DNA from: Promethearchaeota archaeon
Lineage (GTDB): Archaea > Asgardarchaeota > Hermodarchaeia > Hermodarchaeales > Hermodarchaeaceae
Assembly: GCA_048938385.1 (NCBI GenBank)
Contig: JBHLMG010000008.1
Location: 36,084-100,083 of the forward strand
Reading direction: 5' to 3'
Length of the DNA: 64,000 bases
The notes under the pieces are model-generated. The model was not told the DNA's origin. It worked only from the letters and a program-made list of their open reading frames with translations, and did not search any database. Both the position numbers and the translations under genes were made by a program. This document shows, one piece after another, positions 27,778 to 33,889 of this stretch. Each line of letters starts with the position of its first letter. The stretch's first letter is position 1.

Positions 27778-28206
27778 CTAGCGTTTTGATTTGTGTAGGG
27801 CGGTTACTGCTTGTTCGCGTGTTCTGCGTTTAATTTCCTCAATCCTTTCAATAGCAGGAAGGATCGTGTCCACTAATTCGCTTTTTGCTTGGATTCCTTC
27901 ATGAGTCAAGAAGGCAACAGCTTCGCTTCGACTTTTAAAAATCTCTAGAGCTATCAAGGCATCCACAATACGCAGGTCACTATCCCAAAGGCGAGTCATG
28001 ACAATGTTATCACGAGGTTTGGCTTCTGGGAGATCTCCTTTCATGAAGAGCTGTTTTAAATCTTCCATTAGTTCTTGCTTCAATACTACTGGGTTATCTG
28101 ATTCTTCAATTAAAGCGTTGGTCGCAATGGCTTTCTTTTTTGCTTTCGGTTTGGTTGGAGGTGCCATAGTGAATCCCTGTTTTCTAGTGTGATTCAAGCA
28201 TTGCAT
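27778..28206 (-). CDS. Ribbon-helix-helix-like DNA-binding protein (probable start 28167)
   Basis: NIVMTRL....L..VDALI....FKSRSEAV..L...GI fits a CopG/RHH pattern. Confidence 0.6.
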   Translation of the reverse strand: MQCLNHTRKQGFTMAPPTKPKAKKKAIATNALIEESDNPVVLKQELMEDLKQLFMKGDLPEAKPRDNIVMTRLWDSDLRIVDALIALEIFKSRSEAVAFLTHEGIQAKSELVDTILPAIERIEEIKRRTREQAVTALHKSKR

Positions 28207-28355
28207 TTTAGCGTTACGCCCTTCACTCTTATGGCGTTACACTATTGCAAATTGCTGTTTCCAGGGTAATAAGGGCGGCAGGCTTATATACGAGAATAGG
28301 TTTTTGCTACTCAACCTTAACACTGTTAAGCCTAATGAGAAGGTGATATAACAGA

Positions 28356-28619
28356 ATGCCAGTATCCGAGAACCCAATCAGCGACACAGAAATTCACCAC
28401 CGCATCGATGCACGTGGCCTCTATTGTCCTATACCTGTGTATAAAACGCGACAAGCTGTCCTCGAGGCCAAACCAGGTCAGGTTGTCGAGATATTAGCAG
28501 ACGATCCAGCCGCTGAAGAAGATATCAAACGATGGGCTAAACGAACAGGTAATACTGTTCTAAGTTTTGAAGAATGTGACGATTACATACGGTTTCTCAT
28601 TAAAAAGACAGAAAGGTGA
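28356..28619 (+). CDS. tusA: TusA family sulfur carrier
   Basis: IDARGLYCPIP, ILADDPAAEEDI..W....G. Confidence 0.92.
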   Translation: MPVSENPISDTEIHHRIDARGLYCPIPVYKTRQAVLEAKPGQVVEILADDPAAEEDIKRWAKRTGNTVLSFEECDDYIRFLIKKTER

Positions 28620-28987
28620 AAGCTATGCCACAAAAAATTCTCTATGTAGTTGTGAGCGGTACCGATACTCCTGAACGATTATATGCGCCCTTTGTCTTAG
28701 CTACTACTGCGAAGAACATGGGTATTGACGCAACCATCTATTTTGTTGTTAAAGGAGTAACTGTCATGAAGAAAGGTGAAGCCGAGAAGATCAAGCTAGG
28801 CGGTTTTCCTCCATTAAAGGATGTCATTGACCAGGCTATCGAAGCTGGTGTTGAATTAATGGCTTGCGACCAAAGCACGCAAGTTCTTGGTTTAGACCGA
28901 GGTGGCTATGTCGATTCCTGCGGCGTTGTTGGGGCTGCAACCCTGAATGATTTAGCCCTTGAAGCTGATGCAATTTTAACTTTTTGA
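28616..28987 (+). CDS. DsrE/DsrF-like sulfur relay protein
   Basis: APFVLATTA..MG, GVELMACDQS, VGAAT; GTGA overlap with tusA. Confidence 0.85.
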   Translation: MKAMPQKILYVVVSGTDTPERLYAPFVLATTAKNMGIDATIYFVVKGVTVMKKGEAEKIKLGGFPPLKDVIDQAIEAGVELMACDQSTQVLGLDRGGYVDSCGVVGAATLNDLALEADAILTF

Positions 28988-29013
28988 GGAGCGTTTGAGA
29001 GGGAGATAAAGGT

Positions 29014-30225
29014 ATGGTGGAACAAGTTAGTTTCAATCACAGTGCGGGAGTACCGATTGATAAGCGGGTACTTGAGGCAATGCATCCTTACTTCCGCACC
29101 TACTATGGTAATCCCTCCTCCGTTCATACAGCTGGACAACAAAGCGCGAAAGCCGTAGAGAATGCTCGCATCCAAGTTGCACGATTAATCGGAGCTGAAC
29201 TCAAGGATCGCATTCTTTTCACCAGTGGAGCAACTGAAGCCAACAACCTCGCTCTCCAAGGGTATGCGTACCGCCATCGTCGAAAAGGAAATCATATAAT
29301 TATTTCTCAGATTGAACACCTAAGTATTATCAACACTGCTAAGTTCCTAAGTAAGCAGGGATTCGAATATTCGCAAGTTCCTGTTGACGAGTATGGTATC
29401 GTCGATACTAAGGCCTTAGAGGCTTTGATCACTGATCAAACCATTTTGATATCGATTCAGCATGCCAATAACGAAGTTGGGACCATTCAGCCTGTCAAAG
29501 CCATTGCAAAAATCGCTAATGAAGCAGAAATACCGTTGCATATGGATGCGGTAGCAAGTGCAGGCCAAATTCCAATAAATGTAACCGAACTAGGTATTTC
29601 GATGCTCAGCTTGTCTTCTAACGACTTGTACGGACCGAAGGGAGTTGGTGCTTTATATCTTCAACAAGGTATTGCGGTTCAACCGATTCTTCTTGGTGGC
29701 GGGCAAGAGTATGGTGTCCGTTCGGGATCAGAGAATGTTCCTGGTATCGTTGGTATGGGGGTTGCTGCTGAAATTGCTGAAAAGCAACTCGACGAATATG
29801 CCACTTACATGATGGGGCTCCGGGATGAGCTGATCAAAGGTATTTTTACACATGTTGCAGATGTCCATTTGAGTGGGCATCCAACGCTCCGCTTGCCCAA
29901 CAATGCTAATCTTCGATTTCGATTTATTGAAGGTGAGGCAATTACGCTCCACCTTAGCTTTCAGGGATTCCTTGTTGCTACAAGCTCTGCATGCACCTCA
30001 AAAACACTCGCTCCTTCACATGTGCTCTTAAGTATGGGAGTCTCAGAATCCGATGCACATGGAGCGCTCCAACTAACCTTAGGTCGTGAAAACACTCAAG
30101 ATCAGATAAATCGATTTGTCGAAGTACTTCCTCCGATAATTGAAAAATTACGCAAGATGTCTCCACTCTCAAAAGATACCCCTCCAGAAGAATTTGAAGG
30201 AGATGCAAATGACCATCATCACTAA
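29014..30225 (+). CDS. iscS: IscS/NifS-fold protein with the PLP-binding Lys replaced by Asp
   Basis: GNPSS.H, FTSGATEANN, HANNEVGTIQP, SSNDLYGPKG (normally SxHKxYGPKG), SSACTS. Confidence 0.9.
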   Translation: MVEQVSFNHSAGVPIDKRVLEAMHPYFRTYYGNPSSVHTAGQQSAKAVENARIQVARLIGAELKDRILFTSGATEANNLALQGYAYRHRRKGNHIIISQIEHLSIINTAKFLSKQGFEYSQVPVDEYGIVDTKALEALITDQTILISIQHANNEVGTIQPVKAIAKIANEAEIPLHMDAVASAGQIPINVTELGISMLSLSSNDLYGPKGVGALYLQQGIAVQPILLGGGQEYGVRSGSENVPGIVGMGVAAEIAEKQLDEYATYMMGLRDELIKGIFTHVADVHLSGHPTLRLPNNANLRFRFIEGEAITLHLSFQGFLVATSSACTSKTLAPSHVLLSMGVSESDAHGALQLTLGRENTQDQINRFVEVLPPIIEKLRKMSPLSKDTPPEEFEGDANDHHH

Positions 30226-30245
30226 TACAATTGAGGCGATGTAAA

Positions 30246-30638
30246 ATGTCGTATAGTCCAAAAGTTATTGAACACTTCACTAACCCTCGAAACATGGGAG
30301 AACTTGAAGGCGCTGACGCCATTGGGAAAGTAGGGAACCCAACTTGTGGTGACCTCATCTGGATTTATATCAAGGTCAAAAACGATATAATTACAGATGT
30401 GACCTTCAAGACCTTCGGTTGTGCTGCAGCGATCGCTACGAGCAGTATGATTACTGAACTAACGAAAGGAAAGACCCTCAAAGAGGCTTACCACTTAACC
30501 CGAAGCGATGTGGCTGAAAACCTTGAGGGTTTACCACCGATTAAGATGCACTGCTCAAATCTTGCTGCAGATGGTTTGCATAAAGCAATTGAAGAATACC
30601 TCGAGAAGAATGGACGAAGTGTAGACGAACTCAAATAA
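30246..30638 (+). CDS. iscU: Fe-S cluster scaffold IscU/NifU N-terminal type
   Basis: YS.KV.EHF.NPRN.G, NPTCGD, FGCAAAIA, LPPIKMHCSNL. Confidence 0.95.
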   Translation: MSYSPKVIEHFTNPRNMGELEGADAIGKVGNPTCGDLIWIYIKVKNDIITDVTFKTFGCAAAIATSSMITELTKGKTLKEAYHLTRSDVAENLEGLPPIKMHCSNLAADGLHKAIEEYLEKNGRSVDELK

Positions 30639-30654
30639 AACTGAAAAATGCATT

Positions 30655-31032
30655 TCAAGATTTAGTAAGGCGTTCGATGAGGGCTTTGAAGGTAGCTGCA
30701 GATAAGGCTCCTTTAATGAGGTAATCATTAGTGCCCATTTCCATTACCTCTTTTACTGTTTCATCGTCATCAATCGCGGTAAGAGCCACAATTGCTACAT
30801 CAGGGAATTCGGTTTTTACTTGCTGAATGAGGGTAGTTCCACTAATTTTTGGTAGGACCAAATCAACAAAGAAAATATCTGGAGGATTCGCTCGGATTTT
30901 TGTCAGGGCTTCTTGACCATCGATTGCTGTTTCGATGTCGTACTCTCGGAGTAGGAGTTTGGCCGCGCGAAGGAATGTTTCGGAATCATCCGCTAATAGT
31001 ATGCGGATTTTAGGCGATTTCTTGGAAGCCAA
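30655..31032 (-). CDS. Stand-alone response regulator receiver domain
   Basis: ILLADD, VDLVLP (phospho-Asp), ALTA, DYLIK. Confidence 0.92.
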   Translation of the reverse strand: MASKKSPKIRILLADDSETFLRAAKLLLREYDIETAIDGQEALTKIRANPPDIFFVDLVLPKISGTTLIQQVKTEFPDVAIVALTAIDDDETVKEVMEMGTNDYLIKGALSAATFKALIERLTKS

Positions 31033-32476
31033 TTTGGGGTTTTTCCTCCTTTAGATAGGTGTAAATACAATATTGGGGCGTTGAGGGGGTTATTCCATGA
31101 AATACTGTTACGCCTTCTTTAACGGCTAATTCGACATGGATGTCAGCGAGATCGGCGAGGAAACGGTTGATTTCGGGGGTGCTACTGTATCCAATGGTGA
31201 CTGCAAGGTTGCTTTCAGTAGCTGTGTCATTAGCAATTCGTGTTGCCCATCTGGGTAGTTCAGAGGCTCCTAGCCATGAATGTAACCAGCCAAAGCCTAC
31301 AACACTGAGGAGGTTTTTACAGCCTTGGTTGCGAAGTTCTTCAAGGACTAAACTCCAAGCGTTTTCTAGATCTGAGCTTTCTCGAAAGGCTATCGTTTTG
31401 TAATAGGGTTCTCCTAGTTCACCAGTTGCGCTTGATGCTCCGAGACTAGTGGCTGCGCTTGTAAATAGCCGAAGATGTGTATTCAGCTGATCGACAAATC
31501 CATACCGTAGTGCTGCTGCTTTAAGTCGTCGAAAGCTGAGTTTGTTTGGTGGGACGATTAAGACTCCTCCTTCCTGTCGTAGAAAGTTCGCGATCATGCC
31601 TAATACGAGGGAGTTAACTACTTCATTAGGTACACCCTCTGCAACATCAACAAAGAAGGTGCTACCTCGGCGAAATCCTCCGAAAACATCATCGAGTTCC
31701 TTATTACCGGATGAAAATCGTCCTGCTGTATGAGGAATTACATCAAAGTGTGAAATTCTATAGGCTTCTTCGGGATTAAAAGGGTGCAGAATTGAGAAAT
31801 ATCGTTCGCTTAGCGAAAATCCACGTTTACCACGGTCAATTGGGGTACCACGGAGCTTAATGAGACGAATACTTCGCCACATACGGCGTTCAGTTTGTGT
31901 TTTTATGACGCATAAGATGCCATCCACGATGTGATCAATGGGGGAGTCATCAATACCTTCCATGACGAGAATAAACTTCGCACAAAGACTATGACCCAAA
32001 TTCGTTAATGCGCTAGTGAGTCGCTGCGGGTCAGCTTGAGCTGCTTCGATTATTGCGTCAAAGGAGTCAATAACACAAACCGGATTCTGCATATCATGGA
32101 GGTAATCGTTTACTGCACTGATGAAGGTCAATTCGTCTGAATAGATCATACGTGAGTTTGAGGATGAATCATACCCTGATTCGAAGTCAGGGATTCCCAT
32201 TAGTGAAGGTGTGGCGTCAATAATCTTGCCCTCTGGAAGAAATCCAAAGACCCAGGGAAATTGAGCCTGAAGATTAACGCTGGCTACTCGAGAAGAAAGG
32301 TAGAGAAAATTATCAGCTTGGAACAAATCTGGATATTGTTGAGTCAGTTGATCTAATAGCGAAAGGACAAAGGTCGTTTTACCGGTTCCTGACCTACCTT
32401 TGACCAGAAGCGTCTGCCCCTGCTCCTTTCTTAAGAAACTTATGAGTTCTGGTGGTAATGTCATAGTATTGTGCAC
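31010..32476 (-). CDS. GvpD-like double-domain KaiC/RecA-superfamily ATPase (second domain degenerate)
   Basis: LPPELISFL, GRSGTGKT, VIDS, IKLRG; second domain begins FSSGNKELDDVFGG and has no Walker A. Confidence 0.82.
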   Translation of the reverse strand: MHNTMTLPPELISFLRKEQGQTLLVKGRSGTGKTTFVLSLLDQLTQQYPDLFQADNFLYLSSRVASVNLQAQFPWVFGFLPEGKIIDATPSLMGIPDFESGYDSSSNSRMIYSDELTFISAVNDYLHDMQNPVCVIDSFDAIIEAAQADPQRLTSALTNLGHSLCAKFILVMEGIDDSPIDHIVDGILCVIKTQTERRMWRSIRLIKLRGTPIDRGKRGFSLSERYFSILHPFNPEEAYRISHFDVIPHTAGRFSSGNKELDDVFGGFRRGSTFFVDVAEGVPNEVVNSLVLGMIANFLRQEGGVLIVPPNKLSFRRLKAAALRYGFVDQLNTHLRLFTSAATSLGASSATGELGEPYYKTIAFRESSDLENAWSLVLEELRNQGCKNLLSVVGFGWLHSWLGASELPRWATRIANDTATESNLAVTIGYSSTPEINRFLADLADIHVELAVKEGVTVFHGITPSTPQYCIYTYLKEEKPQIGFQEIA

Positions 32477-32479
32477 CTT

Positions 32480-33019
32480 TTATGTAACAGGCCTACTAGC
32501 ATGGTCTACGAGGAGTTCAGATATCACTTGAAAGAGTTCTTTCACATTTGTGCCTTCTTTTGCTGAGGTTTCCATATAACCTAGCATACCGAGATTTTTT
32601 GCTGTCTTTACAGCATCGTCCTGTTTAACGACGCGTTCAGTAGTGATGTCAACTTTGTTACCCACTAGATAGAGCAAAACGCCAGGAGCGCCTTTCTGAA
32701 CATCATCGACCCATTCTCGAATATTGCTCAAGGTGTCTTTACGAGTCAAATCAAAGACGGTGATTGCGAAATCTGTGCCAAAGAGATACTGGACACGGAC
32801 TCGACGAAAGGAAGTTTGACCAGCAAGATCCCAGACTTGAAGTGAAACATCAGATTTGTTCGCTTTCGTTTTAAAAGAGGAAATCGCGGCTCCGAGGGTT
32901 GCTTTGTACTCCTCATCGAAGGAGTTGGTCATGAAGCGCTTGATCAATGAGGTTTTTCCAACTGCGTAGTCGCCAATGACTGAAACTTTAAACATGTAGC
33001 GGCTACCTTTAACATCCAT
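32480..33019 (-). CDS. Rab-like small GTPase
   Basis: GDYAVGKT, YKATLG, WDLAGQ, NKVD, ETSAK; no C-terminal Cys. Confidence 0.95.
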   Translation of the reverse strand: MDVKGSRYMFKVSVIGDYAVGKTSLIKRFMTNSFDEEYKATLGAAISSFKTKANKSDVSLQVWDLAGQTSFRRVRVQYLFGTDFAITVFDLTRKDTLSNIREWVDDVQKGAPGVLLYLVGNKVDITTERVVKQDDAVKTAKNLGMLGYMETSAKEGTNVKELFQVISELLVDHASRPVT

Positions 33020-33115: not shown

Positions 33116-33889
33116 TTATTGTATTGGTGGGAGATCTGAGACTTGAATGCCTTTGTCGTCGATCATTAGGAGAAGGGGATTCATTTGGTGAATAGACCCA
33201 CGCATTTTGGTGATTTCAATAGTCCGGATTCGAACATTGCCCTGGCGGACTAATCTCAGGGTGATTACACCATCCATAAGGAAGCCCTCGACATCGAATC
33301 GACCTATACTTTCGTCAGTCGGGCTTTCCACTGCTACTAGACATGTAGCATTAGTAATGCGGATTGACCTTACCAAGTTAAGGAGGTCGTGGCGAATACG
33401 AAACAGATCTTTATGCTGAAGTGTGAGTGTCGATATGGAATCAATGGCAACCCGCTTTGCTTTGATTTTTCTAATTTCTCGGTGAATTAAGGAAAGAAGA
33501 GATTCCATAGAGAATTCTTCTCGACCTAATACTGGGTGTTCGGGTCTTAACACCACTCGGTCGTTTTGAATCATTGGGGATGCATCAACAAGGGCTAGTA
33601 AACCTTTGGTTACAAGATCTTTGAGGTCCCAGCCAAATTGTCGCATGTTGCGATTCGTGGAATCAAGAGATTCCTCCATGGATACTAAGACGCCTGGTTC
33701 CTTATATTCTGTGGCGCCTTTAACGAGGAATTGGTTCATTAAAATCGATTTTCCTGTTCCTGGTCCACCACTGACTAATATCACTGAGCCTGTAGGAAAT
33801 CCACCGTGGAGCGCATCATCAAGTCCTGGAATGCCTGATTTGGTCTTGTCCACCACGCTGATCCCCCGTGTAGGTGGTTCTCCTAACAT
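33116..33889 (-). CDS. Single-domain KaiC-like (RAD55) ATPase with intact motifs
   Basis: SGIPGLD..L.GG.P, GGPGTGKS, SMEE, AIDS, KMRG. Confidence 0.92.
   Translation of the reverse strand: MLGEPPTRGISVVDKTKSGIPGLDDALHGGFPTGSVILVSGGPGTGKSILMNQFLVKGATEYKEPGVLVSMEESLDSTNRNMRQFGWDLKDLVTKGLLALVDASPMIQNDRVVLRPEHPVLGREEFSMESLLSLIHREIRKIKAKRVAIDSISTLTLQHKDLFRIRHDLLNLVRSIRITNATCLVAVESPTDESIGRFDVEGFLMDGVITLRLVRQGNVRIRTIEITKMRGSIHQMNPLLLMIDDKGIQVSDLPPIQ

Follow-up and report, generated by a model that had tools for sequence, protein, structure and literature searches.

A tusA-dsrE-iscS-iscU operon encoding a lysine-less IscS in a Hermodarchaeaceae archaeon, with a possible sulfur relay for iron-sulfur cluster assembly

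The stretch of DNA analysed here (the window) comprises 64,000 nucleotides (nt) of contig JBHLMG010000008.1, from assembly GCA_048938385.1 of a Promethearchaeota archaeon in the family Hermodarchaeaceae. The Asgard-type host suggested in the original prediction agrees with the source names of the homologues. Between positions 28356 and 30638, the listing of open reading frames (ORFs) contains four genes on the plus strand, which are separated by only 5, 26, and 20 nt and make up the single tight operon that had been predicted. The first gene, tusA (28356-28619), encodes a sulfur-carrier protein of 87 amino acids (aa; Pfam TusA, 91.9 bits, cut-off 28.6), and the second, a dsrE-type gene (28625-28987), encodes a protein of 120 aa (Pfam DsrE PF02635, 64.6 bits, cut-off 22.7). 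The third gene (29014-30225) encodes an IscS/NifS-type protein of class-V fold with 403 aa (Pfam Aminotran_5 PF00266, 236 bits, residues 10-368); it is designated iscS*, a label for an IscS-type gene without the lysine that binds pyridoxal 5′-phosphate (PLP). The last gene, iscU (30246-30638), encodes an iron-sulfur (Fe-S) scaffold of 130 aa (Pfam NifU_N, 156.6 bits). Alternative starts are available for dsrE (GTG at 28616, which would overlap the tusA stop) and for iscU (TTG at 30231). A putative TATA box, TTATATA, can be read at 28284-28290 on the plus strand, 66 nt upstream of the tusA start, and a candidate Shine-Dalgarno-like element, AGGTGAT, at 28341-28347 on the same strand, 8 nt before the tusA ATG. 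Among the ORFs of the operon, the Pfam scan found no genes for TusE, MnmA, or molybdenum cofactor synthesis, and none for chaperones or A-type carriers.

The distinguishing feature of IscS* lies in the local motif LSSNDLYGPKG, whose counterpart in E. coli IscS is SGHKIYGPKG. The GAC codon at 29623-29625 encodes Asp204 in place of lysine, as originally predicted, and alignment with E. coli IscS (NC_000913.3) confirms that this residue occupies the position of the PLP-binding Lys206, with the preceding Asn203 at the position of His205 (both codons at 29620-29625). Judging from the alignment, a PLP-lysine aldimine cannot form in IscS*. In addition, Ala181 (29554-29556) replaces E. coli Gln183 and GGGQ replaces GGGH, with two further residues of the cofactor pocket, His102 and Asp178, being retained (E. 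coli His104 and Asp180). Cys327 (codon 29992-29994), which lies in the mobile loop sequence ATSSACTS and aligns with the catalytic Cys328 of E. coli, is the sole cysteine of the protein. IscS* thus has the fold and the loop cysteine of a class I cysteine desulfurase, and it has neither the PLP lysine nor an equivalog-level score.

The aspartate at codon 204 is neither a sequencing error nor a mutation private to one strain. Among the 120 closest homologues (54-84% identity; from Asgard archaea, Bathyarchaeia, and others), the motif search matched 117, in the form of SSND, SSSD, or ASND, and all 117 carry aspartate at this site, with the other three falling outside the search pattern. Furthermore, the codon is invariant in contigs of four public sequencing runs from three studies, in which AAA and AAG were looked for and GAC was found throughout. 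The silent third positions 29619 and 29628 of the flanking codons differ in two of the three studies, so that GAC is kept amid silent changes on both sides.

IscS* matches solved IscS/NifS chains over its full length. Its best solved match is the IscS of Archaeoglobus fulgidus (PDB codes: 4EB5, 4EB7, and 4HVK; E 5e-131), in which the same SSND motif is found, as had been claimed, and the next is the D199K variant of that protein (4R5F). The scores of IscS* are below every NCBIfam equivalog cut-off for NifS and IscS (470 vs 531 bits for NifS; 364 vs 643 and 363 vs 548 bits for IscS). A quick tree was built for the 82 IscS proteins encoded at 80 genome loci, with the Shimodaira-Hasegawa-like approximate likelihood ratio test (SH-aLRT) as the sole measure of support. 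In it, IscS* falls in an exclusively lysine-less clade of 20 rows (SH-aLRT 99), referred to here as the SSND clade. The site pattern HDASNDC of IscS*, including the alanine at the Gln183 position, is common to 19 sampled members of this clade. By these comparisons, IscS* is shown to be an orthologue of the inactive, lysine-less A. fulgidus IscS.

The partners of IscS* have kept their conserved residues. TusA carries its active-site Cys24 within a CPIP motif (codon 28425-28427), and among 19 operon-linked TusA proteins D18, G21, C24, P25, and P27 as well as the DDPA motif (D49-D50-P51) are invariant. It scores 47 bits on the E. coli TusA equivalog model, below the cut-off of 78, and fits the models of TusA and YedF about equally well. 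DsrE contains a conserved cysteine, Cys81, within ACDQS (codon 28865-28867), which is invariant in 19 operon-linked DsrE proteins belonging to both lysine-less IscS clades of the tree; its match to DsrE2 (NCBIfam NF047629) is weak and confined to the C-terminal part (44.6 bits vs a cut-off of 210). In IscU, the ligands Cys34, Asp36, Cys59, His102, and Cys103 and the LPPIK motif are all present, and the protein scores above the NCBIfam NifU_clost cut-off (197.4 vs 187.9 bits). The claim that Cys327 and all of the IscU ligands are retained thus holds for this operon.

The association of the two carriers with lysine-less IscS was examined in three samples. The first consisted of the 80 loci and 82 IscS proteins of the tree, with linkage defined as location within 2.5 kb on the same strand. 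TusA lies beside 29 of 37 lysine-less IscS genes compared to 1 of 45 Lys-bearing ones, and DsrE beside 12 of 37 compared to 0 of 45; the lone Lys-bearing gene linked to TusA is at a locus that also contains a lysine-less copy. In the second sample, the 29 best Asgard loci, the SSND motif is present in all 29, TusA in 26 (the other three end at contig edges), and DsrE in 18. In the third, the 30 best Halobacteriota loci, TusA is found at 24 of 26 SSND loci, the other two being cut by contig ends, and adjoins none of the four complete Lys-bearing loci. The predicted co-occurrence of the Lys-to-Asp IscS with tusA-dsrE is therefore strongly positive in all three samples, and the tusA-dsrE-iscS-iscU operon is conserved over Asgard and Halobacteriota genomes.

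The tree places the lysine-less sequences in two separate clades. The SSND clade is nested among archaeal Lys-bearing IscS proteins, and the second clade, which is bacterial (18 rows, SH-aLRT 100) and shows A-G/A-x-Q motifs, is also linked to TusA and DsrE. The two clades differ in gene order, which is tusA-(dsrE)-iscS-iscU in the SSND clade and iscS-iscU-dsrE-tusA in the bacterial one, and in the subtype of DsrE, which is short in the former and DrsE_2-like with an insert in the latter. Lysine-less IscS is always paired with an intact IscU, and its pairing with TusA, and often with DsrE, is kept over archaeal phyla and in the bacterial clade.

The gene inventory of the genome bears on how much depends on this operon. 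In whole-genome searches, NifU_N and TusA each gave a single match, in either case the gene within the operon. One ApbC/Nbp35-type ATPase was found as well. Neither the SufB/D core nor a match to the A-type carrier family (PF01521, IscA-type) was found in this assembly, which is 89.8% complete. SufB/D is absent from 18 of the 19 genomes of the family Hermodarchaeaceae, the sole match in the family lying at a contig end of a 74%-complete assembly. It is present in 96 of 151 genomes of the phylum with a completeness of at least 85%, and two closed genomes of another Asgard family are also without it. Because SufB/D was not found and IscU and TusA are each encoded only once, this Asgard lineage probably has no primary Fe-S scaffold system other than the operon. 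It follows that the lysine-less IscS, dead as it may look, is probably part of a working, essential machine rather than a relic.

Lysine-less IscS proteins are already known from A. fulgidus and from IscS1 of Methanosarcina acetivorans. The A. fulgidus protein has no desulfurase activity and contributes a cysteine as ligand of the IscU-bound [2Fe-2S] cluster (PMC7585200, PMC8918507, PMC13066941). It carries pyridoxamine phosphate (PMP), as does the D199K variant, and a 2022 review of cysteine desulfurases left open how A. fulgidus IscS-IscU assembles clusters in the absence of a desulfurase (PMC8918507). The likeness of our operon to A. fulgidus IscS2-IscU (4EB5, 4EB7, 4HVK) consists in the SSND motif, the cysteine loop, and the adjoining IscU. 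However, the published work deals with the IscS-IscU pair alone, whereas here the pair is preceded by tusA and dsrE; moreover, A. fulgidus has SufB and in the present genome none was found. The genome that we took as A. fulgidus encodes a 382-aa IscS matching the 4EB5 sequence, and at a locus at ~165 kb it contains a complete tusA-dsrE-iscS-iscU set. PF00266 has three matches in that genome, namely both SSND genes and one for an AGXT-type aminotransferase whose motif is SQK, so that no Lys-bearing desulfurase is among them. This inventory indicates that the module exists also without any Lys-bearing desulfurase, a situation found for A. fulgidus only among the genomes checked. For the isc1 genes of M. 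acetivorans (IscS1 MA0808, IscU1 MA0807), IscS1 is likewise lysine-less, but IscU1 is longer (24 kDa) than the plain 130-aa scaffold encoded here. The paper on isc1 reported that IscS1 formed inclusion bodies and could not be studied, and it left the neighbouring genes uninterpreted. In the openly accessible literature, the search not extending to subscription journals, the neighbours of lysine-less iscS are mentioned once, as genes of unknown function, and no paper names TusA, DsrE, and IscU together for such a module.

Taken together, we lean, by a little more than an even chance, toward the reading that the operon encodes a minimal unit of Fe-S assembly, of the iron-sulfur cluster (ISC) or minimal iron-sulfur (MIS) type, with a sulfur relay at its front. 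In this mechanism, IscS* itself would take no sulfur from cysteine. It would instead act as the docking partner of IscU, with Cys327 serving both as a persulfide arm and as a ligand of the cluster, on the pattern of the (IscS-IscU)2 structure from A. fulgidus. Sulfane sulfur would travel in persulfide form on TusA (Cys24) and DsrE (Cys81), from which Cys327 or IscU would receive it; the transfer from TusA to IscS* would be the E. coli IscS-to-TusA step reversed. Reduction on IscU would then yield the [2Fe-2S] cluster. The carriers might be loaded by the SufS-family enzyme encoded on another contig of this genome, C2, with cysteine as the source, or equally by environmental sulfide, polysulfide, or thiosulfate.

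The proposed unit can be compared with other known systems. The IscS-TusA-TusBCD relay of E. coli consists of the same three families, namely a class-V IscS, a TusA with a CPxP motif, and TusD of the DsrE family, and in the structure of the IscS-TusA complex (3LVJ), TusA Cys19 lies ~4 angstroms from IscS Cys328 (PMC2854127). However, E. coli IscS is an active desulfurase that sends sulfur outward to tRNA, and iscU does not share one operon with these genes. The MIS system (MisS/MisU, Garcia et al.), which is common in anaerobic archaea (PMC13066941), similarly has a pair of IscS-like and IscU-like proteins without chaperones or A-type carriers, but it has been described with a working cysteine desulfurase and no accessory carriers, whereas here the lysine is lost and two carriers are attached. 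In the DsrE3/DsrE2-TusA cascades of sulfur oxidisers (sHdr systems), protein-bound sulfur likewise moves between conserved cysteines (PMC11094781). Those cascades feed dissimilatory sulfur oxidation rather than an Fe-S scaffold, and the present DsrE is far below the DsrE2 cut-off.

Several observations weigh against the relay. The first sample of loci was drawn by similarity to the SSND alignment and is hence non-random, and the lysine state changes just twice on the tree, which leaves two independent contrasts that point the same way. With only two contrasts, a sign test cannot reach significance, and the Fisher p value of 8e-14 is inflated because of shared ancestry among the loci. DsrE is absent from many TusA-linked loci and is thus not obligatory. 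Among the residues of E. coli IscS that contact TusA, W45, E49, and D52 correspond to Q42, K46, and E49 in IscS* and only R55 is kept; in TusA, R27 is conserved and a hydrophobic residue takes the place of R31. With contact residues changed in this way, docking of TusA in the E. coli mode is not assured. A complex prediction for the IscS* dimer with TusA gave a score of 0.01 and was used neither for nor against the relay. Finally, the crystallised IscS copy of A. fulgidus is encoded at a second locus, at ~512 kb (L158:1217-5454), which has no tusA and in which iscS is preceded by a dsrE frame without an N-terminus or start codon. The two iscS-iscU loci of A. fulgidus look like a segmental duplication with its edge inside dsrE.

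Within the relay, a Lys-bearing SufS-family desulfurase may load TusA or DsrE with sulfur from cysteine, which would then reach IscS*-IscU in a split system. Contig C2 of this genome encodes such a protein, of 424 aa and with SGHK and RAGHHC motifs, and it is conserved in 16 of the 19 genomes of the family. Furthermore, in two closed genomes of another Asgard family (G012 and G023), an operon has the order tusA, dsrE, iscS* (SSND), a gene for a 120-aa protein of no known family, and a SufS-type gene with HK and RxGxHC motifs (L177:4943-8617; same in L178). Although this operon contains no iscU, it ties the lysine-less IscS cassette to a type II desulfurase that, from its motifs, looks active. 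Type II desulfurases require a dedicated sulfur acceptor. Against a supply from cysteine, the C2 gene (G000:C2, L001:1453-3613) has no linkage to the operon, and its neighbour, placed end to end with it, is a MoeB/ThiF/UbaA-type E1 gene. This arrangement recalls the csdA-csdE/tcdA neighbourhood of E. coli and suggests a separate thiocarboxylate pathway. In addition, the C2 protein is just 30% identical to the operon-linked SufS-type protein of the other lineage, and A. fulgidus has the full module without a Lys-bearing desulfurase. We regard loading from cysteine as possible and put it forward tentatively; the likelihood given to it is a share of that of the relay as a whole, not an addition to it, and it competes with the claim of cysteine independence only.

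The cysteine-independent route proposed in the original prediction is not established, in view of the Lys-bearing SufS-family gene on C2 and the SufS-type gene in the operon of the sister lineage. With these genes present, some lineages may yet draw their sulfur from cysteine, TusA and DsrE acting as a shuttle. The stronger proposal, in which the operon is the sole housekeeping Fe-S line of the family and runs on sulfane sulfur from sulfide, polysulfide, or thiosulfate instead of cysteine, is in our estimate rather unlikely. If it were true, Fe-S assembly would have a third sulfur supply, in addition to cysteine desulfurases and to the direct use of sulfide proposed for SMS. The attachment of two carriers to exactly those iscS genes that lack the lysine provides a concrete hypothesis, which is testable with four small soluble proteins. 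What is new here is an Asgard family that seemingly depends on the lysine-less module alone, the link to a SufS-type gene, and the make-up of both A. fulgidus loci. A relevance of the operon to the origin of eukaryotic Fe-S systems, which had also been put forward, finds no support here; the match of IscS* to NFS1 (E 7e-90) is much weaker than that to its archaeal counterpart (E 5e-131). Mitochondrial NFS1 retains the lysine.

An outward flow of sulfur is improbable in our estimate. TusA and DsrE would then take sulfur from IscS*-IscU or from the cluster and deliver it to tRNA thiolation or molybdenum cofactor synthesis. E. coli uses the same three families in that order (PMC2854127, PMC13066941), and as the genome encodes a single TusA, any TusA-dependent thiolation must use the TusA of the operon. 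However, an acceptor of this kind is expected beside active desulfurases, whereas TusA lies beside 29 of 37 lysine-less IscS genes and beside only the one Lys-bearing gene of 45 mentioned above, and no TusE, MnmA, or molybdenum cofactor genes were found in the operon.

Co-regulation without any hand-over of sulfur appears less probable still. TusA and DsrE could serve as regulators or protectors, for example by competing with IscU for IscS* or by buffering reactive sulfur, or their position could simply be inherited. The TusA of E. coli is a competitor of IscU for IscS and has a modulating effect on Fe-S assembly (PMC11302665, PMC11446229), and the association described here comes from two independent origins only. 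On the other hand, the linkage spans several archaeal phyla and has outlasted rearrangements of gene order, it recurs in a second clade with another DsrE subtype, and the carrier cysteines are invariant, all of which speak against this reading.

That IscS* is still an enzyme, employing another lysine, PLP or PMP bound non-covalently, or selenium in a module like that of YedF and selenocysteine lyase, is very improbable. His102 and Asp178 of the pocket are retained, PMP is bound by A. fulgidus IscS (PMC8918507), TusA fits the YedF model about as well as its own, and YedF is a TusA-DsrE fusion linked to selenocysteine lyase (PMC5322559). However, wild-type A. fulgidus IscS is without desulfurase activity (PMC7585200, PMC8918507), its D199K variant is also PMP-bound (PMC8918507), and three more changes in the pocket (Gln to Ala, His to Asn, and GGGH to GGGQ) are found at the level of the clade. 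A selenium system was rejected, since no SelD in this genome is above the cut-off (best 81 vs 125 bits) and DsrE has ACDQS without the CGxC motif of YedF.

Some side observations concern IscU and its surroundings in other genomes. In several lineages (L110, L111, L113-L117, L022, L025, L036, L151, and L154), the IscU ORF beside the SSND IscS is not 130 aa long but has ~260 aa or more, which appears to reflect fusion to an extra C-terminal domain. The sole IscU of G012 (C1:2722196-2723713) and that of G023 (C1:2679439-2680956) match NifU_N in two pieces, 2-34 and 32-126, which lie ~1.1 kb apart in a single open frame of 518-541 aa; the split looks like an intein inside iscU. Upstream of the truncated dsrE at the ~512 kb locus of A. 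fulgidus are a frame for a DtxR-like repressor and feoB.

The operon of the window is flanked on both sides by genes of the minus strand. An ORF of 142 aa (27778-28206), which is divergent from tusA and has no Pfam or NCBIfam match, keeps its position at 13 loci within the genus and family, and no copy was found next to the operon outside them. It may act as a local regulator or reflect no more than inherited gene order; a role as a module-wide regulator is unsupported, given its conservation within the family only and the lack of a family match. On the other side, a response-regulator receiver gene and an overlapping gene for a KaiC/GvpD-type P-loop ATPase of 488 aa (30655-32476) are convergent with iscU at a distance of 16 nt, and the position of the receiver gene beside iscU is constant throughout the family. 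Further on, the ORFs at 32480-33019 and 33116-33889 are, by appearance, a candidate small GTPase and a candidate KaiC/RadA-like ATPase, respectively.

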